Source: an archaeon
GTDB taxonomy: Archaea > Nanobdellota > Nanobdellia > SCGC-AAA011-G17 > PNOQ01
Direction of reading: 5' to 3'
Assembly: GCA_018671245.1 (NCBI GenBank)
Contig: JABHIB010000008.1
Coordinates: 111,756-175,755, forward strand
Length of the DNA stretch: 64,000 nucleotides
The notes under the pieces were generated by a model. It saw only the letters and a program-made list of their open reading frames with translations, was not told where the DNA came from and ran no database searches. The position numbers and the translations under genes were made by a program. Below, piece after piece: positions 21,834 through 45,394 of this stretch; the stretch's first letter is position 1, and each line of letters opens with the position of its first letter.

Positions 21834-23216
21834 TTAACTCTCCAACTTTTCTAAAATATTCTCATCAACAATCACAATATGTCCAATGCTTTTAACATTC
21901 TTGTATTTAACAATAATTCCCTTAGTTTTAAGATTTTGTTTTTTATCTAATCTAATTCTTAAACTATCAATCTTATTTTCTCCCAAGAGAACTTCATCAA
22001 CCTTTCCAATATAATTCCCTTCCCCACAATAAACTTCCCTTTTAATCAAACCTTTGATGCTATTCTTAGGATGTTTATTTATTCTATTAATTTCAATTTT
22101 TTCTATAATCTTTTTTTTATAAACAAAAGCCATTAATCCAAACAATCCGATTATTAGAAGAAATCCGAGAACATTCCAATTGTTATTAACTATACTTGAG
22201 CCACCAACAACAAAACCAGTCATAGTATTTCTTCCGATAAACAAAATTCCTACTAACATAAATCCAACAAGAATTATTAAGAAAGTTTTACCCTTAATTC
22301 TTTTCAAATTTTTCTTAATCTTGCTTTTGTATTCCTTATGTGTCTTTGGCTTTCCTACTTTTTTCTTTATTATTTTAAATTTAGATTTAAATAATCTAAT
22401 GATTAGCAAAATCAATAATACTGCAACTACACCTATAATTCCATAAACCAAATACATCCAATTAAAATTTTTTACAGGGAGTAAAGCACATTCTTCTTGA
22501 GATAAAACTTCAAAGGTTTCTCCTGCAACAGCAGTTTTATTCCCACTATAAGCAATTTCAGCATATAACCTGTATGTTCCTTGAGAAGCTGAATCTGGAA
22601 CTTTTAGTTCTATGTTGAAGCTTGTTTCTTTTTCAACAGCTCTTGTGTCCTTGTATTCAGTAATTAATTTATTATTTTTATCAATAATCCAATAAGTCAT
22701 AAAAGCATCAAGAAGTTCTACTTTAGCATAATTTTCCAATTTTACATTTGCTTTAATCTTTTTTCCAGAACAAATCTCTTTATATCCATCTTCTAAATTT
22801 AAATAAATATCAAATAAAGGTTCTGATGGGCCAAGATATTCACAAATTTGTGTTTGATTTGGCATTCCTTTTGTTCCAGTGCAATCTCCTTTATTTGCAC
22901 AAATTCTTTCTTGTATCCCTGATTCTGGGCAGATAGATGGAAACCACTCTGTACATTGCCAGTCATAAGTACACTTGCTTCCTCCAGAACTTCCTCCTCC
23001 AGGATTTGGAGTTGTGGGACAAGCTCCGCAATCTCCTGGGCAAGTTGAACAGCTTTCTCCATTATTGCAAATTCCATCTCCGCAATATAAAGACGGTGTT
23101 GAAATTTCAGAGTAATTTCCAGAACCATAAATCCCTTCTCCATAGTTACCTGCAGAAACTAATGGAATTAGAACTAATATTAATGCAAAAAAAATAAGTT
23201 TTTTTTTGATTATCAT
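21834..23216 (-). CDS. signal-peptide, Cys-rich extracellular domain, TM, C-terminal PRC-barrel-like protein
   Basis: Signal peptide MIIKKKLIFFALILVLIPLVSA and Cys cluster CGDGICNNGESCSTCPGDCGACP. TM helices near residues 255-275 and 300-360. The C-terminal 70 aa (YCGEGNYIGKVDEVLLGENKIDSLRIRL...IVIVDENIL) resemble a PRC barrel. Confidence 0.45.
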   Translation of the reverse strand: MIIKKKLIFFALILVLIPLVSAGNYGEGIYGSGNYSEISTPSLYCGDGICNNGESCSTCPGDCGACPTTPNPGGGSSGGSKCTYDWQCTEWFPSICPESGIQERICANKGDCTGTKGMPNQTQICEYLGPSEPLFDIYLNLEDGYKEICSGKKIKANVKLENYAKVELLDAFMTYWIIDKNNKLITEYKDTRAVEKETSFNIELKVPDSASQGTYRLYAEIAYSGNKTAVAGETFEVLSQEECALLPVKNFNWMYLVYGIIGVVAVLLILLIIRLFKSKFKIIKKKVGKPKTHKEYKSKIKKNLKRIKGKTFLIILVGFMLVGILFIGRNTMTGFVVGGSSIVNNNWNVLGFLLIIGLFGLMAFVYKKKIIEKIEINRINKHPKNSIKGLIKREVYCGEGNYIGKVDEVLLGENKIDSLRIRLDKKQNLKTKGIIVKYKNVKSIGHIVIVDENILEKLES

Positions 23217-25642
23217 CTTATACTCCCTCCTGGATTAATTACAAATTTACATCCATCTTCTTTATAAATTTCCCAATGAGAACTAGTAAAACTCATATTC
23301 GCATTCCAAGTTAGAGTTCCAGAACCAGTAATTGTAATATTATTTGGGACTATAAAATTAGTATCCCAAACACAATTATCAGAACATGTAATTGCCCAGT
23401 TTCCAGAATCTGGGGCTGTGCAAGTATTGAGAGCTATTGTGATTTTTCTTGTCTTAGTAATATTTAAATTTCCCCCGGTATCAATTGCATAAGCAGTATA
23501 ATTATAATTTCCAAGATTTAAATCTGTGAAATTGTTATGTAAATTATATAATCCATTATCATAAGAGGCGTTGATCTCTTCTGGACTTAATGCTCTTGAA
23601 TATATTTTGACTTCATCAATATCTCCCTTAAATAAATAACCTGCACTATTTCCTGATGCTCCTATTCTTGTAACTGCAGCACCCTTGGTTGCGGTTAATG
23701 CCTTAAAATTAGCAGAAGTTAAAGGATAATCCATTATTTCTACACCATTTACATAAACTGTTGCGGTTGTTCCATCCCAAGAGTTAACAACATGATACCA
23801 TGTATCTAATTCTGCAACAATACTTGTACCTCCAGATTGATAAGTCGGTCCACTAGCACCTGCACCTATTGTTGCAGTTATGTGGTGTGAAGTTGCTTCT
23901 AACCCAATAAAAAAAACAGAACTACCAACACTGGTTCCATCATTTCTATGAAGTGGGGTTCGCCATCCACTAGGTAAGTCTGCTGTTCGTCTTATCCAAG
24001 CTTCAACAGTCATAGCATCATAATTTCCATCAGCAGTACTTCCAAGATTAATATAATCGTCTACCCCATCGAATTCCAAAGAATATCCATATTTTCCAGT
24101 TACTAAACTTTCTTCTCCAAAATCCGCCCCAGTAAAAATTCCAAAATTATCATAACTTGAATTATCATAAACACCTGATGCATTTGTATTTTCAAAATTC
24201 CAATATCCTAACAAAGAATAATTCCAATCAAAAAATGCTGAAGTATCTAATCCGTCTGTTATTGTTGTATTTAAATAAACAAAATTTTCACTTTTTGTAT
24301 CTCCATCTGTAGGTGTGGGAGGTTCCCAAATTACTACTGGAGGATCTTGATCCACAATTGTTAAATCACTTGAATTTCCCCATTCACTATATGCTCCATC
24401 ATATAATCTCATACCACATTTCCAGACATCCCCTGAACTAGTATTTCCAGAATCTAAAACTGCATTAAATTCATAATTATTAGGATAACTTTCATTATAA
24501 TCAACAGTTAAATTCAAAACACCATCTTTATACCATCTTACTGTAACATTCATAGCATCTTCATCAATATCTAAGAGTGTATCATAACAATTTAAATCTT
24601 GATTATTTAAATTACTTCCATCAGTTGAATTAATTTCAGGAGTTGGTGTCTCTGGAGGGCCACTTACAGCAACAGTAACATTTCTTGAATCTATATTTAA
24701 ATTACCTTCTTCATCCAGAACATAAGCAGAATAATTATAAATTCCATTTTCAAGAGAAGAAAAATTATGATAAAGTCTATTTGCAGTATTATTATATAAT
24801 GCACCAATTTCTTCTGCACTTAATGCACGTTCCACAATCAATACTTCATCTACCTTACCTTTATATTGATAATTAGCACCATTACTGGATGCACCAATTC
24901 TTGTGGGAGTTGTTAAAGTATTATATGTTGCTAAAGCATATTCTTTGTTATATTCACCATTTAGATAAACTACAACATCAGTCCCATTCCAAACAGCAGC
25001 TATGTGCCACCATTCCCCATAAGTTGCAAGTTGTGTAGTTCTTCCTGCATACCAACCACCAGGGGCACCTGAATTAGCTCCAATAGTAGCAGTTAATAAA
25101 TTATCATTACTAACACCTAACCAATATGAACTTGAACCAATCGTTGTCGAAGTTGCATGATGTAAAGCACATTCATAAGAAGGGCCATCAGCAGTTTTGT
25201 AAAGCCAAGAAGCAATCGTAAGTTCGGTAGGATTACTAACAACAACATTATCTGTTTTAATATAGTCATTCACTCCATCAAATTCTAAAGCATTTCCATA
25301 TTTTCCGGTGGTTATATTTGAAGTAGTTGGTCCTCTTCCACCAAAAGTCATGAAGTTATCATAACTTGAATTATCAAAAACTCCTGTTGAATTTGTATTT
25401 TCAAAATTCCAATATCCTAACAAAGAATAATCCCAGTCAAAAAAAGCAGAAGTTTCATTATCATCGGTTATAGTTGTATTAAGATAAACCCAAGCATTTT
25501 CAGTTATATCTCCATCTGGAGGGGTTGGGGGTTCCCAAGTTATAGTTGGAGTATCAGCACTAACTAAAGCCAGAGAAAAACTAAATAATAAAAATATAAA
25601 AAAGGTTAAAATTATCTTTTTTTTTAATAATCTTTGTTTCAT
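23213..25642 (-). CDS. secreted protein with two tandem LamG/ConA-like lectin-type domains (internal duplication)
   Basis: Signal peptide. Two about 400-aa repeats each begin (T/V)(I/V)TWEPPTPxDGD...YLNTTITD...SAFFDW(D/N)YSLLGYWNFENTN. They contain LEFDGV(N/D)DYI...WYHxxxxWNGT...VYxNGE blocks characteristic of the LamG/pentraxin fold. Many N-x-S/T sequons. Confidence 0.6.
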   Translation of the reverse strand: MKQRLLKKKIILTFFIFLLFSFSLALVSADTPTITWEPPTPPDGDITENAWVYLNTTITDDNETSAFFDWDYSLLGYWNFENTNSTGVFDNSSYDNFMTFGGRGPTTSNITTGKYGNALEFDGVNDYIKTDNVVVSNPTELTIASWLYKTADGPSYECALHHATSTTIGSSSYWLGVSNDNLLTATIGANSGAPGGWYAGRTTQLATYGEWWHIAAVWNGTDVVVYLNGEYNKEYALATYNTLTTPTRIGASSNGANYQYKGKVDEVLIVERALSAEEIGALYNNTANRLYHNFSSLENGIYNYSAYVLDEEGNLNIDSRNVTVAVSGPPETPTPEINSTDGSNLNNQDLNCYDTLLDIDEDAMNVTVRWYKDGVLNLTVDYNESYPNNYEFNAVLDSGNTSSGDVWKCGMRLYDGAYSEWGNSSDLTIVDQDPPVVIWEPPTPTDGDTKSENFVYLNTTITDGLDTSAFFDWNYSLLGYWNFENTNASGVYDNSSYDNFGIFTGADFGEESLVTGKYGYSLEFDGVDDYINLGSTADGNYDAMTVEAWIRRTADLPSGWRTPLHRNDGTSVGSSVFFIGLEATSHHITATIGAGASGPTYQSGGTSIVAELDTWYHVVNSWDGTTATVYVNGVEIMDYPLTSANFKALTATKGAAVTRIGASGNSAGYLFKGDIDEVKIYSRALSPEEINASYDNGLYNLHNNFTDLNLGNYNYTAYAIDTGGNLNITKTRKITIALNTCTAPDSGNWAITCSDNCVWDTNFIVPNNITITGSGTLTWNANMSFTSSHWEIYKEDGCKFVINPGGSIR

Positions 25643-25643
25643 T

Positions 25644-27554
25644 TTAACTCTGGATTATTATTCCACTCCCATTATGATACATTTTAGCTGAGCAGTCTGC
25701 GGTGAAACAAAAAGTATCTGTTGTTGTAATATTTCCAGTTGCATTAATATCCCCCGCAACATCTAAATTTCCAGTCATAGCATCTCCACTAACATTAACA
25801 AATGCATTATCAGCATCACTTGCGGTTATGGCATTTTCCACACACCCAGTTATTTCAGAACACTCATCTTGTCCTGCAAGAGCACTATCGATTTCTGATT
25901 CTGTATAAAATAAACTTGTTAACCAACTCACCAAAATACTCAAAGTTCCATCATTATTCTCCATTTGAGTTTCATTAATAGTATTCAGGTTATCCCAATA
26001 ATCTGATGAATTAACATTTAAATCAGATTCCTCACCATCATCTATCCAATCATCTTGATTAATATCCATATAAAGTGTATCAGCTAATGATTGATTCCAA
26101 CTTGAGTTATCTCCTGTAACACTTATGCTTGCATACAAAGTGTCAGCATAAGTTTTGTTCCAATCATCTCCATAATTCACCGGAGCATAATTGTCATCAA
26201 GCAAAGTTGTCAAATCTGATTCTTCATCATAAAATATTGTTCTTGCATAACTTTCATTCCAGGATGAATTATCTCCTGCAACTCCAGAAATCTGATTATC
26301 AACATAATCTTTCATTGAATCATTAAAGATAACATCTTGTGTATCTGCATAAGCATTAGCTGGAATTGTTTGGTTGTAAGCCCAAGTGTCATAAGTTGCA
26401 TTGTATGTTGAAAGCCAGCTAGCTTCTTGTGAAGTTATATAATCAAACACAGGTGTAGATTGATTGTAATCCCATTCAATTCCTGCATAAAGTGTATCAG
26501 CTAATGATTGATTCCAACTTGAGTTATCTCCTGTAACACTTATGCTTGCATACAAAGTGTCAGCATAAGTTTTGTTCCAATCATCTCCATAATTCACCGG
26601 AGCATATAAAGTGTCTGTCAAAGATTGATTAAAAGAGGAGTTTCCTCCAGAAATTCCATCAATCCTTGTGCTCAAAGAAGAATTAACTGAATTAATTAAA
26701 TCTGTTTCATTATAATTATCTGCTATATTATCAATTGTATTATTTAACTTAGTTTCATTAAAGTAAATGGTGGTGGTATCATTATATAAATAATTTCCAT
26801 CTGCTGTTTTTTGTGTGTCTATTCCTCCCCCCCAACGAGAATCCCCTGTGTTGTTAAATATCTCATCCCATATTGTTGGAATTTCTGGTTTGTTTGTCAA
26901 GTCATTATAATCTTTATCCCATGCAGAATAAATAGGATCAGATTCACTTGTTAAATAACTCTGCAAATCACTTATCTGCGATTCTTCAATTGTAACATTG
27001 CTCCAGTCATCTGAATAAACTTTTGAAGCATAAATATTAGTAACATACAAATTCGCCCATTTTAACAATGAACTTCCTAAATTAAATAAATTATTAATCT
27101 CTGGAAGAAAAGAGCCATTTAAATATTGATTAGTTACAGTCGCATTAAGATAGCTTCCGATTAAAGATAAATTACCATTGATTATTACATTTCCATCAAT
27201 TGTTCCCCCTTCATCTTTGTCAAGATAATTAGCATCATTTGTGAACTTGCTGATTGTAACTTCTGTTAGATCTATCTTGCTTGAATTAATAGAATCATCA
27301 GCTAAATCTTCGGCACTAAGAGTTCCATCTAAAATATGGGAAGTATTTATGGAGGAAGAATAAATATTTGTCCCGTTCACCATTGTTTCATTTAATTTAA
27401 CTCCATCACTACCTGCAATTTTTGATAAAAAATCATTAAGGACCGTTCCCCAATCATTTTCATCTCCTCCTATAGTTGGAAGACGAGATGCGGATACCAA
27501 ACTCATCATCAATAAAATAAATATTCCAATTAAAAATAATTTACTTGCCCTCAT
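25644..27554 (-). CDS. secreted sequon-rich surface (S-layer-like) protein with internal near-identical repeat
   Basis: Signal peptide MRASKLFLIGIFILLMMSLVSA and more than 30 N-x-S/T sequons. The peptide block LTDTLYAPVNYGDDWNKTYADTLYASISVTGDNSSWNQSLADTLY occurs twice, encoded by about 120-bp identical DNA copies at 26068-26188 and 26486-26606. Confidence 0.5.
   Translation of the reverse strand: MRASKLFLIGIFILLMMSLVSASRLPTIGGDENDWGTVLNDFLSKIAGSDGVKLNETMVNGTNIYSSSINTSHILDGTLSAEDLADDSINSSKIDLTEVTISKFTNDANYLDKDEGGTIDGNVIINGNLSLIGSYLNATVTNQYLNGSFLPEINNLFNLGSSLLKWANLYVTNIYASKVYSDDWSNVTIEESQISDLQSYLTSESDPIYSAWDKDYNDLTNKPEIPTIWDEIFNNTGDSRWGGGIDTQKTADGNYLYNDTTTIYFNETKLNNTIDNIADNYNETDLINSVNSSLSTRIDGISGGNSSFNQSLTDTLYAPVNYGDDWNKTYADTLYASISVTGDNSSWNQSLADTLYAGIEWDYNQSTPVFDYITSQEASWLSTYNATYDTWAYNQTIPANAYADTQDVIFNDSMKDYVDNQISGVAGDNSSWNESYARTIFYDEESDLTTLLDDNYAPVNYGDDWNKTYADTLYASISVTGDNSSWNQSLADTLYMDINQDDWIDDGEESDLNVNSSDYWDNLNTINETQMENNDGTLSILVSWLTSLFYTESEIDSALAGQDECSEITGCVENAITASDADNAFVNVSGDAMTGNLDVAGDINATGNITTTDTFCFTADCSAKMYHNGSGIIIQS
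26068..26606. repeat. two about 120-bp identical direct repeats (period about 418 bp) inside the surface-protein gene
   Basis: cataaagtgtatcagctaatgattgattccaacttgagttatctcctgtaacacttatgcttgcatacaaagtgtcagcataagttttgttccaatcatctccataattcaccggagcata is present at both positions. Confidence 0.7.
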
Positions 27555-37179: not shown

Positions 37180-37794
37180 ATGATACAAAAAAAACTAAAA
37201 CCAAAAAAAACTTACAACATCTACTATCTTTCCATGGATGAATTAAATAAATTAATTGAGTCAACAAAATCCTTGAGAGATCAAATAGTTCTAAAGATTC
37301 TGGCAAGAACAGGTATGAGGAGATTCGAATTATGCAACTTAAGGGTCATGGATGTAGATTTTACTAAGAGGAGAATATTCATTCCAAAGGCGAAAGGTGG
37401 CAAATTTAGAACAGTTCCTGTAGATCGAGACACATTACAATCAATTAAATTTTACATAGGTTCAAGGCAGAATGGTAAGCTTATACAGAGTAACAAAAAA
37501 GATAATGATGGGATAGACGAAAGTAGGATCAATGCAATAGTAAAAAATACTGCGATAAGGGCCGAAATTCCCCATCCTGACCCTACAAAAAGGAATATGA
37601 ACCCTCATATACTAAGACACAGTTTTATACGTCATATGCTAAAGATTGGAGTTCCACCAAATTATGTACAACAGTTAGCAGGCCATTCAGACATCAGAAC
37701 AACATTACAAATGTATGGTATTCCTAGTTTTACAGATGTTCAAGAAAAGTACGATGAGATCTCAAACACATTTTATGGTGATAAAAATATTTAA
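37180..37794 (+). CDS. tyrosine recombinase / integrase, catalytic domain only (204 aa)
   Basis: Catalytic blocks are ARTGMRRFELCNL (Arg I), HILRHSFIRHML (H-x-x-R) and GHSDIRTTLQMYG (nucleophile Tyr). There is no N-terminal core-binding domain. A 25-codon out-of-frame ORF (MAEIGHNHNVYKELLRFLGILERK, starting at 37095) lies just upstream. Confidence 0.75.
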   Translation: MIQKKLKPKKTYNIYYLSMDELNKLIESTKSLRDQIVLKILARTGMRRFELCNLRVMDVDFTKRRIFIPKAKGGKFRTVPVDRDTLQSIKFYIGSRQNGKLIQSNKKDNDGIDESRINAIVKNTAIRAEIPHPDPTKRNMNPHILRHSFIRHMLKIGVPPNYVQQLAGHSDIRTTLQMYGIPSFTDVQEKYDEISNTFYGDKNI

Positions 37795-38830: not shown

Positions 38831-39535
38831 TTAACCTAAATAACTAGTCTCTTTTTTTGTTTTCAAATCACTAACATTTTTGGTATTTTTCAAAAGTGAC
38901 TTTATCTTATCTTCAACCTCTTCGGCTTGTTTGAGTAGAGGTTTATAATCAACTTTCAAATCAAGATATTTGTCTAATACCTTTACAACATTAGCAGCAG
39001 CCCTACTATCTGGTAATTTAGATTTAGTTTCAGCGAAGATACAGGATATAGGTACATCCTTCATTCTCAAAATTAGTGCTGCAGTTATTCCTACCACAAT
39101 GCCTTCTTCTAAAGGTGGAATTTCAAGATTCTCAAACTTTTTCCAATTCTTAGGACTGTAAAAATATACTCCATCTTTGTCATTTTTCCCTAATAATCCC
39201 ACTCCTTCTAAGCTAACTATTTCTCTCGCATTAATTTGTTTAGCAAGGTCTCCTATAGCCGAGGCGAGCTTCCACTCTATACCTTTAACTTCTGTGATCG
39301 CATGAACTATAATTAGATTATATTTTTTAGAATAAAATAATCCTATAGGTTCTATAATGTCTTTCCCATGTACTGCTACTACTGGATCCATTTCACTTAA
39401 CCAGATCGATCCAATTCTTTCAGCATTAAGGTGATCTATTAAAAATTCAGTAGTGATTGTTCCAACAAGTCCAAAACCAGGAAATCCCTCGATGATAGTT
39501 GCATTCTTGGGCCTCTTTTTCAATTCAATTTCCAT
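38831..39535 (-). CDS. PAC2-family proteasome assembly chaperone (COG1938, ATP-grasp-like)
   Basis: N-terminal IIEGFPGFGLVGTITTEFLIDHL matches the PAC2 signature (GFPGvGlVG). 234 aa. Confidence 0.55.
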   Translation of the reverse strand: MEIELKKRPKNATIIEGFPGFGLVGTITTEFLIDHLNAERIGSIWLSEMDPVVAVHGKDIIEPIGLFYSKKYNLIIVHAITEVKGIEWKLASAIGDLAKQINAREIVSLEGVGLLGKNDKDGVYFYSPKNWKKFENLEIPPLEEGIVVGITAALILRMKDVPISCIFAETKSKLPDSRAAANVVKVLDKYLDLKVDYKPLLKQAEEVEDKIKSLLKNTKNVSDLKTKKETSYLG

Positions 39536-40419: not shown

Positions 40420-40470
40420 ACAAAAGATTTTTAAGTTTAAGATTAGCAATTCTATTCCTATTTTAAATGT

Positions 40471-40545
40471 GGGCTCATAACTCAGCCTGGTCAGAGTGCT
40501 TGGCTCTTAACCATGAAGTCGCGGGTTCAAATCCCGTTGGGCCCA
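40471..40545 (+). tRNA. tRNA, probably tRNA-Lys (anticodon CUU); no encoded CCA
   Basis: GGGCTCA acceptor pairs with TGGGCCC. D-stem ACTC/GAGT. Anticodon arm CTTGG-CTCTTAA-CCATG (one U-U mismatch). T-arm GCGGG-TTCAAAT-CCCGT. Discriminator A. Confidence 0.6.
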
Positions 40546-40624
40546 TTTTCTTTTTATCGAGAATAGGAATATTTAAATAAGACCATATCAACAATCTATA
40601 TTATATTAAAAGGGTGAATAAAAA

Positions 40625-43600
40625 ATGGTGAAAAAAATAAAATTTTCTTTAACTATGTTGCTAGCATTTATCGTTATTTTTTCTGCAATCAATTCTGATA
40701 CTGTAGAAGCTAGACCTGTTACAAAAGAGTGGACAAATGTATATTGTGGAAAAGAAAGTTGCGGTTTCGATAGTTGCGAATCTAATGAGATGTGTCAAAT
40801 AAGACAGCGAGAGCTCTTTCCAAATATCTTTCCGGTAATTCACCCTTCCGGAGAGGGACCTCTGAAAGCTCCAATAAATTCACCAATTAAAATAAGAAGT
40901 GTTGCAGAAACACCTTCAATTTCACCAACCTCAGAATTTAGAAAAGATGAAACTCGAAGTTTTTTTGAAAAAACTAAACAGTGGTTATCTATTCAATCAA
41001 GATGTACTCCTTCTAATTTATGTGTTAATTCCTGTGATGATGGGATAGATAATGATGGAGATAGAAATTTTGATTCAAAAACAATACAAAATTTTGCAGC
41101 AGAAGGAATTTCAGTTAGTAGACAAGAATCTGCATGTGATTCAAAAGTTCAAGATCAAAGAACAGGTGAAAGTAATTGCATGCTTTATTTCACTGAGAAT
41201 ATGAATAATCCGAACTTCATAGCAGAAGGTATTGGGCTATGTAATACAGAAAGTACAAGTGGATTGAAAGCAATATTGAGACCTTATACAGAAAATTGTG
41301 ATCCAAATTTTAACAGAGTATCAATTTCAAATCTCGAACATATGGTTGATGGTGCAGTATTAGATAACAATGAACTTTGTGGATCATATTTTGATTGGTG
41401 CTGTGTTGACCTTGGAAGCGATGTCTATGATCCCAGTGGCACATTAGGTAGTGTAAATAATTTCAGATATCTTGGAGACGGACTTTGCCAAGGATGGTTA
41501 GATGATGAAGACCCTATGCAAGTTTGTAGGGGAGAGTATAATGCTAATCCTAGTACTAACTGTACACTCGACGTTGATGGTGGTTGGACAATATGGAACT
41601 CAGAACTATACTATAATTCTCTTTGGACAGATTCCTCAGGGACACCTCAATCTGACTGTCTTTTGACTGAAGTTGATTGTGATTGGACTGTATGGCCATT
41701 TGGTGCAGCAGAAAACTGTGAATCTGGAGATACTGCAGAAATTCCTGAAGTGGGTTTGGTAGTAATTGATTGGGAAGAAGGGTCAACCTGTTCATATGGT
41801 CAACACACAAGACAGTGTTCATCAGGTAGTTATACTTGGAGTGAATGGGGTACTTGTGATGGTGCTGTTCCTGGAGAGTATGCCCAAGAACTATCTTGTA
41901 ATGATGGCGAAGATAATGATTGTGATGGATTAATTGATAGTTACGATGATGATTGTGGAATCTGTACAGTAGGAGCTGCAATAACTCAATCTTGTGGATA
42001 TAATGCTATAGGGATTTGTACTATCGGAACAGAAAATGCAGACTGTGAGTATAATGCTGGAACAGGATTATGGGAATTCAATGATTGGCACAGTTGCGAT
42101 GCAATAATGCCAACTACAGAAGATTGTAATGATGCGAGTTTATTAGATGAAGATTGTGATGGGACTTCAAATAGTGGAGATACTGAATGTGGAACCTGTA
42201 CAGAAGGGGATGCAATAACTCAATCTTGTGGATATAATGCTATAGGGATTTGTACTATCGGAACAGAAAATGCAGACTGTGAGTATAGTGGTGGGCAATG
42301 GAACTTTGGAGATTGGCACAGTTGCGATGCAATAATGCCAACTACAGAAGATTGTAATGATGGTGAAGATAATGATTGTGATGGATTCATAGATAGTGAT
42401 GAATTAAATAATCCTGATGAGACTAATGAATGTGGTGAATGTATAAGCTCTTCTCAAGACACACAAGCATGTGGTTATGATTATAATGGGGAATCTGGAG
42501 GAATAAATTATGGAATAGGTGAATGTACTGAAGGTACAACTTACTCTGATTGTGAATTTGTTGCAAATCTTTGGCAATGGTCAGAATTTCATAATGGTTT
42601 AGGTATATCTGATAATCCTACAACTTTATTAGTAAATGAAGGTTGTGGGGGATCATATTTGGGACCAGAAGAAGAATACTGTGATGACGGTTTAGATCAA
42701 AACTGTAATGAAGAAGCAGATGAAGGATGTTATGATTCTTTTAGAACATTCTTTGTTACAAATCCTTTAGATTTCCAGAACTATGATCTAGCTGAAGAAA
42801 GTTCAATAGCTTTTGATTCAACTATGGTAAATGAAGATGGTACAGGTTCTGCAATAATGGTTTACAGATCAGGAACAATAAATAAGGCCTTAAATTTTGC
42901 AAAATATGTTGGTCCTGCTGCTGCAACTTATGAGATGCCTGGTTCTGGAAGTTGTGGATATAATGAATTTGGTCAAAGGTTAGGTACATTTGAATGTTCA
43001 ATAGTGGATGGATCGGATGATACTGATGGGGATGAAAATTCAATTGTTATAGATACAACTGGAAAGATACATGTTACATACACTCATAAATCAACAGGAA
43101 ATATAGGTATAAAATATGCCTCCTCTATCGATGATGGACAAACTTGGACAATATCTGTTGTAGATCCTTCAGTGATGGGAACAGATTATGCCTATCCTGA
43201 GATATTTTTAGTTGGAAACATACCTCATATGATTTATACTAGAGTTTCTAAAAACACTCCTGTACCATTTGGAGAAACAGATGAAGTTTATCACGCTTGG
43301 TTAGAGGGTACTACTTGGAATAAGGAAACTATTGCAAGTGCGCCAACTTATTATGGTATGTATCCTGGTGACATGTATAGGTCCTCAGTAGATTATGATT
43401 CGACAACAGATACAATTCATGTGATCTATAAATCTCATGAATGCACCCTACCAAACTGTCCAAGGAATATATTCTACACACAAAAAGTAGGAGCTGGAAC
43501 TTGGAGCAATCCTCAGAATATCCTAACAGTCAATGACGAAATATATAGGACCAGATTATCAATAAAAGTTGGAGGGGACGGAAACCTACACATAGTACAC

Positions 43601-43975
43601 CCTCATAAAGATGTATCTGGAGATATAAGGTCTCTAAAATATGCAACCTCTACAAACGGTGGTACTTCTTGGACATACGAAGATTTGAGTACTTGTGCAG
43701 CTTACAACCCTCAATTAACTATAACTGTGGAAGGGTTACCAAGATTAACGGCATGGTCTTGGGCATGTGGTGGAGATGACTATGATCAATGGTTCTTTTA
43801 CTATCTTTCAGAATCTGGATGGAATTCAGAGAGAGTAGAAGAAGGAACAAACACTGCATTATTTAATGGAGAAACTGGATCAATAACAATTGATAATACA
43901 AATAAGGTCCATACAAGTTATTTGTTTACTTCCAATGTTGGTGTAGATACCTTAAGATATGCACATATATTATAG
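40625..43975 (+). CDS. giant secreted cysteine-rich repeat protein with C-terminal BNR/Asp-box beta-propeller
   Basis: Sec signal MVKKIKFSLTMLLAFIVIFSAINSDTVEA. Repeated CxDGxDNDCDG(L/F)ID motifs (CNDGEDNDCDGLIDSYDDDC, CNDGEDNDCDGFIDSDE, CDDGIDNDGD). Asp-box motifs SIDDGQTW and STNGGTSW. Blade-like strands IHVTYTH, IHVIYKSH and LHIVHPH in the last 350 aa. Confidence 0.6.
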   Translation: MVKKIKFSLTMLLAFIVIFSAINSDTVEARPVTKEWTNVYCGKESCGFDSCESNEMCQIRQRELFPNIFPVIHPSGEGPLKAPINSPIKIRSVAETPSISPTSEFRKDETRSFFEKTKQWLSIQSRCTPSNLCVNSCDDGIDNDGDRNFDSKTIQNFAAEGISVSRQESACDSKVQDQRTGESNCMLYFTENMNNPNFIAEGIGLCNTESTSGLKAILRPYTENCDPNFNRVSISNLEHMVDGAVLDNNELCGSYFDWCCVDLGSDVYDPSGTLGSVNNFRYLGDGLCQGWLDDEDPMQVCRGEYNANPSTNCTLDVDGGWTIWNSELYYNSLWTDSSGTPQSDCLLTEVDCDWTVWPFGAAENCESGDTAEIPEVGLVVIDWEEGSTCSYGQHTRQCSSGSYTWSEWGTCDGAVPGEYAQELSCNDGEDNDCDGLIDSYDDDCGICTVGAAITQSCGYNAIGICTIGTENADCEYNAGTGLWEFNDWHSCDAIMPTTEDCNDASLLDEDCDGTSNSGDTECGTCTEGDAITQSCGYNAIGICTIGTENADCEYSGGQWNFGDWHSCDAIMPTTEDCNDGEDNDCDGFIDSDELNNPDETNECGECISSSQDTQACGYDYNGESGGINYGIGECTEGTTYSDCEFVANLWQWSEFHNGLGISDNPTTLLVNEGCGGSYLGPEEEYCDDGLDQNCNEEADEGCYDSFRTFFVTNPLDFQNYDLAEESSIAFDSTMVNEDGTGSAIMVYRSGTINKALNFAKYVGPAAATYEMPGSGSCGYNEFGQRLGTFECSIVDGSDDTDGDENSIVIDTTGKIHVTYTHKSTGNIGIKYASSIDDGQTWTISVVDPSVMGTDYAYPEIFLVGNIPHMIYTRVSKNTPVPFGETDEVYHAWLEGTTWNKETIASAPTYYGMYPGDMYRSSVDYDSTTDTIHVIYKSHECTLPNCPRNIFYTQKVGAGTWSNPQNILTVNDEIYRTRLSIKVGGDGNLHIVHPHKDVSGDIRSLKYATSTNGGTSWTYEDLSTCAAYNPQLTITVEGLPRLTAWSWACGGDDYDQWFFYYLSESGWNSERVEEGTNTALFNGETGSITIDNTNKVHTSYLFTSNVGVDTLRYAHIL
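41963..42430 (+). repeat. tandem 234-bp (78-aa) duplication inside the giant secreted-protein gene with about 120 bp of 100% identity
   Basis: gcaataactcaatcttgtggatataatgctatagggatttgtactatcggaacagaaaatgcagactgtgagtata and agttgcgatgcaataatgccaactacagaagattgtaatgatg are identical between copies starting at 41963 and 42197. Confidence 0.7.
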
Positions 43976-44005: not shown

Positions 44006-45394
44006 ATGAATATGAAACATGAAAATATCAAAAAATACCTTTTCATAAGCTCACTAATAATCATGTTACTTCTTTTAAATTTTAATTCTATCCATTTTTC
44101 TAAAACTAGGGATATGAGTGAGCCTGTTTGGATAGAACAAGGTTGCGGACTAACTGTTTGCGGAATGAATTCTTGTGGGCATGATGAAATGTGCCAATCA
44201 TCAATCTCAGAAAAAATTCCTGACTATCAAATCTATCTTCCTCCTCAAATCCCTCTCTCTCCATTGAAAGTAGAAAAAGTTTCGACTAGTAAAATTGTTC
44301 CAGATTATTTAGAGCCAAGATCTTTTTTTGTTGATAGAAAATATAGGTGTCATCAAACTCTTGATTGTATAGATACTTGCAATGATGAGGTAGATAATGA
44401 TGCAGATGCAATGGAAGATTCTTCGGATCCCAGCTGTTCAGGTACAAAAGGTTCGGATAGGACTGCTCCTAGAGCTTGTCGAACTCTCTTCGACGGCAGA
44501 ATTTCAGATCCAGACTTCATAGCAGAAGGTTCTGGTCAATGTCTTGATGATTTTAATCAAGAATCCTGTTTAGCACTAAATATTGGGAATGAAAAATGGA
44601 CAGATATAATAAATTTGGAGTATTTGCATGCGGGTGGAGCATTAAATAATAATGGTCTTTGTAATAGTTGGTTCACAAGTTGCTGTGTACAAATAAAAGA
44701 TGAAGGTGGTCAACCTACTCCTATATATAATCCTACAGGAACTATATACAGTGAAGCGGATGAAAATTATATTGATCATTTCAAATACTGTGGAGACAGT
44801 TATTGTCAAGGGTGGAATGCAGTTCAAACAATAAAGCTTCCTGACTGGTTTATTGAATCTGGAACTATTTTTATGGGCGAAACTTTTAATTCGTGTCACT
44901 GGACTAATATTGCAGGAACTCCTGATGATTCTTCTGATGATTTTGTTGAATCTGATTGCAACATAGAACCCTATAGTTGCACTGTAACTGATAATCCTGA
45001 AGGGATGCTACAATACTTTCCTCCAATAGGGAATCTATATCTAAGCAATATTACAAATGCTCATGTAGCGACTTCAGCAGGAAGTTATGATTACAGAGTC
45101 TATTGTTCTTATGCATACTATTTCATGTCTTCTTCTCAGGAATTTGATTTTTTAAGAATAGAATCGACTGGAGAAAATGCCCATATCGAGTCTACAGATC
45201 ATTCAAGTTATGGATATACAGATTACAAAATAAACACAGAAGGGGATTGTTTTGTTTATGATCAACCAGGTGATTGCCCTGCAGATACGGAAACTCAATC
45301 ATTCTGCGTGATCGCACTATCTGATGTAACAAATGCCCATGTGGCAGATTGTTCAGAAGAAACATATGACTATAAATTATGTTGTAACTATTAA
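44006..45394 (+). CDS. secreted cysteine-rich protein, paralog of the N-terminal module of 40625-43975
   Basis: Sec signal. Shares ordered motifs CG..CG...SCG.DEMCQ, RSFF, C..C(N/D)D..DND.D and FIAEG.G.C with the preceding gene. The C-terminus has three TNAH(V/I) repeats. Confidence 0.5.
   Translation: MNMKHENIKKYLFISSLIIMLLLLNFNSIHFSKTRDMSEPVWIEQGCGLTVCGMNSCGHDEMCQSSISEKIPDYQIYLPPQIPLSPLKVEKVSTSKIVPDYLEPRSFFVDRKYRCHQTLDCIDTCNDEVDNDADAMEDSSDPSCSGTKGSDRTAPRACRTLFDGRISDPDFIAEGSGQCLDDFNQESCLALNIGNEKWTDIINLEYLHAGGALNNNGLCNSWFTSCCVQIKDEGGQPTPIYNPTGTIYSEADENYIDHFKYCGDSYCQGWNAVQTIKLPDWFIESGTIFMGETFNSCHWTNIAGTPDDSSDDFVESDCNIEPYSCTVTDNPEGMLQYFPPIGNLYLSNITNAHVATSAGSYDYRVYCSYAYYFMSSSQEFDFLRIESTGENAHIESTDHSSYGYTDYKINTEGDCFVYDQPGDCPADTETQSFCVIALSDVTNAHVADCSEETYDYKLCCNY

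Follow-up and report, generated by a model that had tools for sequence, protein, structure and literature searches.

Two adjacent cysteine-rich modules (units 1 and 2), encoded within a single gene on a 64,000-nucleotide stretch of archaeal DNA (hereafter the window; assembly GCA_018671245.1, contig JABHIB010000008.1, positions 111,756 to 175,755 of the forward strand), share 129 bp of DNA at 100% identity in two blocks of 77 and 52 bp. We conclude that this identity very probably arose when an old pair of units was homogenised by short-tract gene conversion. In what follows, W denotes the window lineage, X the orthologue on contigs L003 and L007, and Y the orthologue on L005 and in protein P0141; W1, W2, X1 and X2 are units 1 and 2 of the respective lineages, and the four Y units are named a to d, of which Yb and Yc match units 1 and 2. 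The host gene and the parts of its repeat are listed below in window coordinates.

40625 to 43975, plus strand: host gene, an open reading frame with its translation, 1116 amino acids
41963 to 42196, plus strand: unit 1, 78 amino acids, orthologue of X1 and Yb
41969 to 41977: unit-1 marker, GTAGGAGCT
41977 to 42053, plus strand: tract 1, unit-1 copy, exact run of 77 bp encoding AITQSCGYNAIGICTIGTENADCEY (strands b1 and b2 in the model); site patterns 9 concerted to 0 orthologous
42054 to 42082, plus strand: loop 1, NAGTGLWEFN, the b2-b3 hairpin turn and b3; unit-specific, 80% nucleotide identity to the X1 loop
42083 to 42134, plus strand: tract 2, unit-1 copy, exact run of 52 bp encoding DWHSCDAIMPTTEDCND, offset 228; site patterns 4 concerted to 0 orthologous
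42135 to 42196, plus strand: linker B, ASLLDEDCDGTSNSGDTECGT, unit-1-type, common to X1 and Yb
42197 to 42439, plus strand: unit 2, 81 amino acids, orthologous to X2 and Yc
42211 to 42287, plus strand: tract 1, unit-2 copy, 77 bp, identical to 41977 to 42053, offset 234
42288 to 42310, plus strand: loop 2, SGGQWNFG, two codons shorter than loop 1, with the same gap in X2 and Yc; marker AGTGGTGGGCAA
42311 to 42362, plus strand: tract 2, unit-2 copy, 52 bp, identical to 42083 to 42134, offset 228
42363 to 42439, plus strand: linker A', GEDNDCDGFIDSDELNNPDETNECGE, with a 7-codon ELNNPDx insert as in X2

Exact identity between units 1 and 2

The tandem repeat lies in frame inside the gene, as a sequence-only reading of this DNA had proposed, and the reading frame and module architecture are intact across it. 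That reading gave exact stretches of 77 and 43 bp (about 120 bp in all) within a span of 41963 to 42430; the first length and the start hold, whereas the second run is 52 bp long and unit 2 ends at 42439. The differences between the units, which had been placed in the loop only, extend beyond it: the first 14 nt of the units differ (12/15 identity across the first five codons), and the linker past 'CND' is 61% identical with two indels, the loop itself being 54% identical. The period changes from 234 to 228 owing to a 6-bp indel in the loop. Random redistribution of the 36 mismatches among the 222 aligned sites gave runs of 77 and 52 in 0 of 100,000 trials (P < 1e-5), and an offset scan of the window found direct exact repeats of at least 40 bp in only four places, the tracts included. 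Tandem Repeats Finder made no report at the locus, because a 234/228-bp pair with indels falls under its score threshold. An explanation of the identity through RNA or antisense coding found no support: antisense open reading frames inside the repeat reach at most 57 amino acids, no inverted repeats were present, and Rfam returned only a tRNA-Lys gene upstream.

The pair of units predates the divergence of its orthologues

Orthologues were found through contig searches, an exhaustive search of representatives and cluster listings; a homologue search by indexed words reached no further than the cluster of the protein itself and a single distant repeat protein. In X (L003; full-length protein P0138 on L007/L008), the orthologous gene runs collinear with that of the window, has both units and shows 84% amino-acid identity. 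The Y orthologue (P0009 on L005; full-length P0141) is 47% identical and has both units at the same place, in a neighbourhood that matches the window's: an integrase-family gene, a PAC2 gene, a gene of about 260 amino acids (257 amino acids) and then the host gene. The Y DNA ends inside unit c, and full-length Y is known from protein P0141 only.

The units are also distinguished by the same markers across lineages. The loops of W2, X2 and Yc have a two-codon gap that those of W1, X1 and Yb lack; W2 and X2 both carry the 7-codon ELNNPDx insert; and the linker reads DEDCDGTSN in W1 and Yb and has a DNDCD form, shorter by two codons, in W2 and Yc. The loop and linker of W1 are 80-83% identical to those of X1, versus 54-61% to those of W2. 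By the Nei-Gojobori method, synonymous divergence (dS) between W1 and W2 outside the tracts is 0.91, with a non-synonymous divergence (dN) of 0.45 and a proportion of synonymous differences (pS) of 0.53, as compared with a dS of 0.55 and a dN of 0.095 between W and X over the whole gene. Because both units are orthologous in X and Y and the non-tract dS exceeds that between W and X, the pair is older than both the W-X and the W-Y splits. Judged from their sequences, units 1 and 2 are thus shown to be an ancient tandem pair of six-cysteine modules of about 80 residues.

These results bear directly on the proposal that the copy is a very recent 234-bp duplication made by unequal crossing over, whose loop and linker have diverged fast since. 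Such an event would account for 129 bp of perfect identity in two blocks and for the in-frame, head-to-tail arrangement. However, the extra copy would be expected to be missing from close orthologues and to show uniformly low divergence, and neither is the case: X and Y carry both units position for position with unit-specific indels, the non-tract divergence of W1 and W2 is greater than that of W and X, and the W1 loop and linker resemble those of X1 far more than those of W2. About 36 substitutions and three indels would also have to have accumulated in about 100 nt, and none in 129 nt. We therefore consider a recent duplication very improbable.

The number of units does change, over long timescales: it is about one in the more distant relative P0012 (by eye, a single such unit between module 0 and a module-3 type), two in W and X, and four in Y. 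The units also evolve faster than the remainder of the protein (dN 0.21 versus 0.06-0.10). In P0141 (Y, 1253 amino acids), two junctions, c/d and d/module-3, contain exact copies of one 44-residue stretch, GEWYGCTATFPQTEQCNDDLDNDCDTFTDSYDQPECGSCIEETI, which may stem from a genuinely recent unit duplication in Y or from a long conversion.

Evidence for short-tract gene conversion

We compared W1 and W2 with their counterparts site by site. Inside the tracts, 13 sites pair W1 with W2 against X1 and X2, and none pairs the orthologues; in the loop, linker and 5' end, 2 sites pair W1 with W2 and 12 pair the orthologues (Fisher p = 6e-6). Against Yb and Yc, the corresponding ratios are 29:0 inside the tracts and 3:4 elsewhere. 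The tracts contain no differences over 24.3 synonymous sites, an outcome with P ~1e-8 if they were of the same age as the non-tract sequence. This mosaic supports one part of the sequence-only reading, namely that the identical DNA reflects recent homologous recombination between the units. It departs from that reading on the kind of event: an internal segment swapped without its flanks would need a non-reciprocal or double exchange, and single unequal crossovers would not be able to yield such a mosaic, so that non-reciprocal conversion of two short tracts takes the place of the crossing over that had been proposed. With 0 differences over approximately 42 effectively neutral sites, the last conversion is placed, as a 95% bound, no earlier than roughly the final 13% of W-X divergence. 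The whole unit region is identical in five independent W loci (L001 and L009-L012), and in the W population as sampled the converted state is fixed.

Could purifying selection and AT-biased codon usage have held the tracts identical without any recombination? The tracts encode the most conserved part of the module, with Cys, Gly and Trp positions invariant across 56 modules; the genome has a G+C content of 31%, and acidic linker motifs reach 90% nucleotide identity largely through conserved residues. Nevertheless, X1 and X2, which share the same codon bias, are only 84% and 82% identical over the segments corresponding to tracts 1 and 2, with 17.3 non-synonymous and 3.7 synonymous differences, so codon bias and purifying selection cannot account for the identity in W. 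Moreover, W and Y each have a lineage-specific tract sequence common to both units, and the synonymous sites of the W tracts, 24 in number, are free of differences. Selection without recombination is thus an extremely unlikely source of the identity.

The following route would fit these observations. In the W lineage, homologous recombination between misaligned units 1 and 2 would have copied sequence non-reciprocally, in two events or in one patchy event, so that a 77-bp and a 52-bp segment coding for the scaffold lost all their differences. The hairpin loop, the first five codons and the linker retained their old unit-specific sequence. The tracts end where the units carry indels and high divergence, at the 6-bp indel of the loop and at a 6-bp linker indel three codons past tract 2, perhaps because heteroduplex formation or short-patch repair was blocked by heterology or because homogenisation of the loops was selected against. 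The same process has acted independently in sister lineages and amounts to ongoing concerted evolution of the scaffold with the loops kept distinct.

Homogenisation in sister lineages

In Y, exact runs of 48 and 49 bp are common to units b and c (alignment columns 41-88 and 123-171; the W runs occupy columns 15-91 and 121-172), and runs of 49 and 48 were reached in 0 of 100,000 shuffles (P < 1e-5). Three of the four tract borders lie within 3 nt of each other in W and Y, and the loop with the 6-bp indel was spared in Y as well. Because the W and Y tracts, each common to both units within its genome, are only 65-71% identical to each other, each lineage homogenised its own version. Both tract-ending borders lie three codons before an indel, a position that fits termination of heteroduplex or repair at heterology and fits selection against homogenising distinct loops equally well.

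X shows signs of exchange as well. The X2 linker has unit-1-type states and is identical to the X1 linker at 31 of 32 positions. Across 2799 bp, only 5 nt separate two X strains. Every one of them is located within 21 bp of X2 tract 1 (unit 2 compared as L007 2585-2833 versus L003 1016-1264), and 4 of the 5 differences make the majority allele identical to X1. The majority allele (L006, L007 and L008) encodes ETAECEY, and the L003 allele encodes ESSEFEY, without the conserved Cys. This cluster looks like a micro-conversion polymorphism.

We also considered whether linker A' had been converted from linker A, the linker that follows module 0 (90% identity over 51 nt between linker A and the linker following unit 2, with a 23-bp exact run at 41909-41931). 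This candidate was dropped: with Y as an outgroup, the unit-2 xxDNDCDG linker state looks ancestral, and the converted linker is that of X2, from X1. The linker motif is too conserved to settle more about the origin of linker A'.

In a separate case, P0002 (ENA, 1075 amino acids, nine modules), an unrelated MopE-repeat protein, contains long exact peptide repeats between non-adjacent modules (by eye), one of them, PGSEGEICGDGLDNDCDGK.DDADEDCWAC, in modules 6 and 8. Modules of this class may therefore commonly undergo patchy homogenisation.

Several points weigh against gene conversion as we have described it, or limit its detail. The donor of tract 1 is unassignable, W being like X1 at 5 sites and like X2 at 4, and tract 2 shows a lean to unit 1 (6 to 2). 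The comparison covers three lineages, one of which (Y) is represented at the DNA level only as far as unit c, and dating is no finer than roughly the last 13% of W-X divergence. The coincidence of borders in W and Y may be due either to a heterology barrier or to selection. Finally, the L003 minority allele may be an assembly or sequencing error and not a conversion polymorphism.

Assembly and copy number

Misassembly, as a repeat mis-join or as strain alleles stitched in tandem, had been named as the explanation that would undo the observation. Short-read assemblies do falter here. The L004 contig begins within unit 2, and the L005 contig ends in Yc; the L006 scaffold has an N10 gap in linker B and junk contig ends (L006 1805-1814 and about 2300-2375); P0142 passes from the b loop via the common tract 2 directly into the d linker; and L002 encodes a single unit. 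Nevertheless, among the contigs read from 30 index blocks, at least 24 show the two-unit form, and these represent various samples and assemblers (SPAdes, MEGAHIT k141, NCBI metagenome-assembled genomes and JGI). Because k = 141 spans each tract together with unique flanks, the two-unit arrangement is not a misassembly. The reading frame is intact, and the independent X and Y assemblies have the same two-unit layout. An assembly artefact is therefore scarcely credible as the source of either the identity or the duplication. With breaks, gaps, chimeric paths or possible collapse in five retrieved contigs, the tracts deserve to be flagged for those who annotate or assemble DPANN genomes.

One apparent variant was rejected: the 523-residue protein P0008, seemingly truncated after unit 1, is false and is created by the N10 gap and junk ends of L006. 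This scaffold also jumps from the equivalent of window position 42651 to that of 46583, which represents either a misjoin or a large deletion.

The sole one-unit form is P0006 (1038 amino acids), encoded on L002 (ERZ508549), a SPAdes contig with a coverage of 4.2x. P0006 equals the window-type two-unit protein (P0001) minus exactly 78 residues, and its one unit joins exactly the 5' end of unit 1 and tract 1 to the loop and 3' part of unit 2. Such a chimera would fit a crossover in the 77-bp tract; it would also fit a de Bruijn collapse at k of 55 or less and 4.2x coverage, if the 157-bp cycle edge was lost. We regard it as rather doubtful that the one-unit form is real.

This chimera is one point in favour of a further possibility, that the tracts are functionally maintained recombination substrates of a contingency-type locus that varies its units and loops within populations. 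Unit number differs among lineages (about one in P0012, two in W and X, four in Y), recurrent tract borders are found in both W and Y, and evolution is faster in the units than elsewhere in the protein. On the other hand, the one-unit form comes from a single 4.2x SPAdes contig, and a tract of 77 bp is longer than the k of 55 that is usually the maximum, so that collapse would be expected. The 24 contigs encode the same two-unit protein, the five W loci are identical in DNA, and no polymorphism was seen among them. Neither silent cassettes nor inverted repeats nor a recombinase specifically tied to the locus were found, and the integrase-family gene upstream is syntenic in all lineages. We consider a contingency-type locus decidedly unlikely.

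Architecture of the host protein

The host protein, at 1116 residues, is large, although not the giant it had been called. Its N-terminus (MVKKIKFSLTMLLAFIVIFSAINS...) appears, from the translation and by eye, to be a hydrophobic signal or anchor, and is followed by a Cys-rich N-terminal domain, four Cys-rich modules (0, 1, 2 and 3) and a C-terminal domain of about 415 residues. Each of the four modules finishes in an acidic CNDGxDNDCDGxxD linker. Two elements flank the repeat.

41897 to 41962, plus strand: linker A, after module 0, CNDGEDNDCDGLIDSYDDDCGI, a MopE-like acidic double-Cys motif (repeat family D2)
42440 to 42724, plus strand: module 3, a variant of greater length that is conserved in W, X and Y and lies outside the identical repeat

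No curated family model places the protein. The PF11617 model (Cu-binding_MopE) matched three stretches of the window protein at 11.7 bits against a cut-off of 27 (E 0.33), and the NCBIfam model NF033662 (acidic double-disulfide repeat) scored 15.8 bits against a cut-off of 41 (E 0.0086). PF11617 is significant in the module-level homologues P0002 (E 1.9e-33) and P0010 (E 4.7e-34) and in P0012 (E 5e-8), a relative with the full architecture; P0011 and P0013 also pass. The PF11617 motif is thus present in the window protein in a diverged form, though below the curated cut-off. By eye, the linker CNDGxDNDCDGxxD matches the motif of PF11617 proteins, whereas PF11617 covers only the linker of about 30 residues and not the core, and metal binding is putative.

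The C-terminal domain has Asp-box-like SxDxGxTW motifs, seen by eye only (SSIDDGQTW and STNGGTSW). It scored below the cut-off for BNR_4 (E 0.12, 12.1 bits versus 27.3), which gives it no membership in the BNR/sialidase family, and reached 15 bits against a cut-off of 700 with the NCBIfam model for rhamnosidase BT3686 (E 0.0049). No homology to a characterised adhesin domain was found, and the adhesin label once attached to the gene was a guess.

The identical tracts lie in the beta-hairpin core of about 55 residues, for which neither Pfam nor NCBIfam has a model and the PDB gave no fold match. The top PDB match by sequence was weak, a teneurin-4 fragment (7plp_A, E 0.1); the teneurin Cys-rich motif, which is acidic, has been compared to that of MopE (PMC3278476). 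An AlphaFold model of linker, unit 1 and linker, built with 56 module sequences, had a mean predicted local distance difference test score (pLDDT) of 85.3 and contained three strands, b1 (residues 452-457), b2 (468-477) and b3 (482-485). In this model, tract 1 corresponds to b1, an internal loop and b2, the variable loop to the b2-b3 hairpin turn and b3, and tract 2 to the segment running into the linker. A two-module model with 8 sequences was poor (pLDDT 62.6). As modelled, the module has three strands, is rich in disulfides, carries MopE-like acidic linkers and lacks a solved structural relative. A literature search for such a module in DPANN archaea found nothing specific. A supportable description of the protein is that of a secreted or surface, disulfide-rich, probably cation-binding, modular protein, for which we infer a surface-binding role.

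Host organism, neighbourhood and other repeats in the window

The window is archaeal and AT-rich (31% G+C) and encodes PolD DP2 and DP1-like subunits, Cdc6/Orc1, PAC2 and an archaeal pilin N-domain. A protein identical to the host protein is named 'hypothetical protein HN841_02870 [archaeon]' by NCBI, and the 84%-identical orthologue was found in a metagenome-assembled genome titled Candidatus Woesearchaeota. The host organism is a Woesearchaeota-like (DPANN) marine archaeon.

Upstream of the host gene lie an integrase-family gene (37180-37794), a PAC2 gene (38831-39535) and a tRNA-Lys (CTT) gene (40470-40546, plus strand), the last of which is 78 bp from the open reading frame. The integrase-family and PAC2 genes are syntenic in W, Y and other W-lineage contigs. 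Directly downstream, at 44006-45394 (plus strand), a paralogue of 462 amino acids has the N-terminal Cys-rich domain of the host protein; its counterparts are at L003 2832-4220 and L004 1706-3028. The copy on L004, a contig of low coverage, turns to unrelated C-terminal sequence past approximately residue 230, which represents either a variant C-terminus or a chimeric contig.

Two further genes of the window contain internal repeats. An open reading frame at 25644-27554 (minus strand, 636 amino acids) has an exact 120-bp direct repeat at 26070-26189 and 26487-26606, which encodes the same 40 residues twice, YAPVNYGDDWNKTYADTLYASISVTGDNSSWNQSLADTLY, 417 bp apart, with flanks at random-level identity. 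The protein is rich in N-x-S/T and secreted-looking, and had no match in Pfam. This repeat is a further sharply bounded intragenic copy or conversion in this genome. The adjacent open reading frame at 23213-25642 (minus strand, 809 amino acids) encodes two Laminin_G_3 (ConA-like) domains and has an internal repeat (24048-24346 versus 25257-25555, period 1209 bp, about 80% identity) with a 41-bp exact run at 24182-24222.

Discussion

The process described here is of a known kind, intragenic repeat homogenisation by conversion, and involves no new mechanism. It is set apart from the classic cases by partial homogenisation, an array of two units, a hairpin loop left unit-specific and a DPANN-type host. 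Its interest lies mainly in the borders that recur in two lineages and in the uncharacterised fold of the module.

Concerted evolution of tandem repeats is known from the streptococcal alpha C and Rib proteins, the staphylococcal SasG and Aap proteins and the yeast FLO genes. Spidroin repeats are a further example (PMC3933166; review PMC3899988). As in these surface and silk proteins, adjacent units of the window gene have identical DNA attributable to recombination and group by genome and not by position, and loss or gain of units is possible. Unlike them, the window gene has two units, whose homogenisation is partial (77 + 52 bp) and whose loop and linker stay orthologous across species; its host is a DPANN-type archaeon, and copy-number polymorphism is only a candidate.

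Ectopic or interlocus conversion, as detected by GENECONV-type tests, is a short-tract, non-reciprocal transfer bounded by heterology. The mosaic signal, the long mismatch-free runs, the erased synonymous sites and the tract ends next to indels are common to that process and to the units described here, whereas the partners in the present case are neighbouring modules of one open reading frame, 234 bp apart, and the direction of transfer for tract 1 is not fixed.

In the pilE/pilS and vlsE systems, silent donor cassettes diversify an expression site. These systems resemble the window gene in having short conversion tracts in a gene for an exposed protein. They differ in that, in the window gene, conversion brings two expressed modules closer together in sequence, the loop, which is the variable part, stays unconverted, and a donor cassette was not found. 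This pattern suggests that, in this uncharacterised type of module, the loops are the part that has differentiated in function and probably faces a ligand.

A bolder proposal is that, in a DPANN surface family, scaffold segments are recurrently kept identical, with the same borders, as built-in recombination sites through which modules with differing loops are deleted, added or recombined, the L002 chimera being real. We think this unlikely; if true, an episymbiotic archaeon would have a simple way, free of cassettes, to vary a protein that faces its partner.

Our results indicate that perfect DNA identity of tandem units does not date their duplication, since the orthologues show that this pair is old. 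Homogenised by what was very probably gene conversion, the two units illustrate neatly, and on a small scale, concerted evolution within an archaeal gene.

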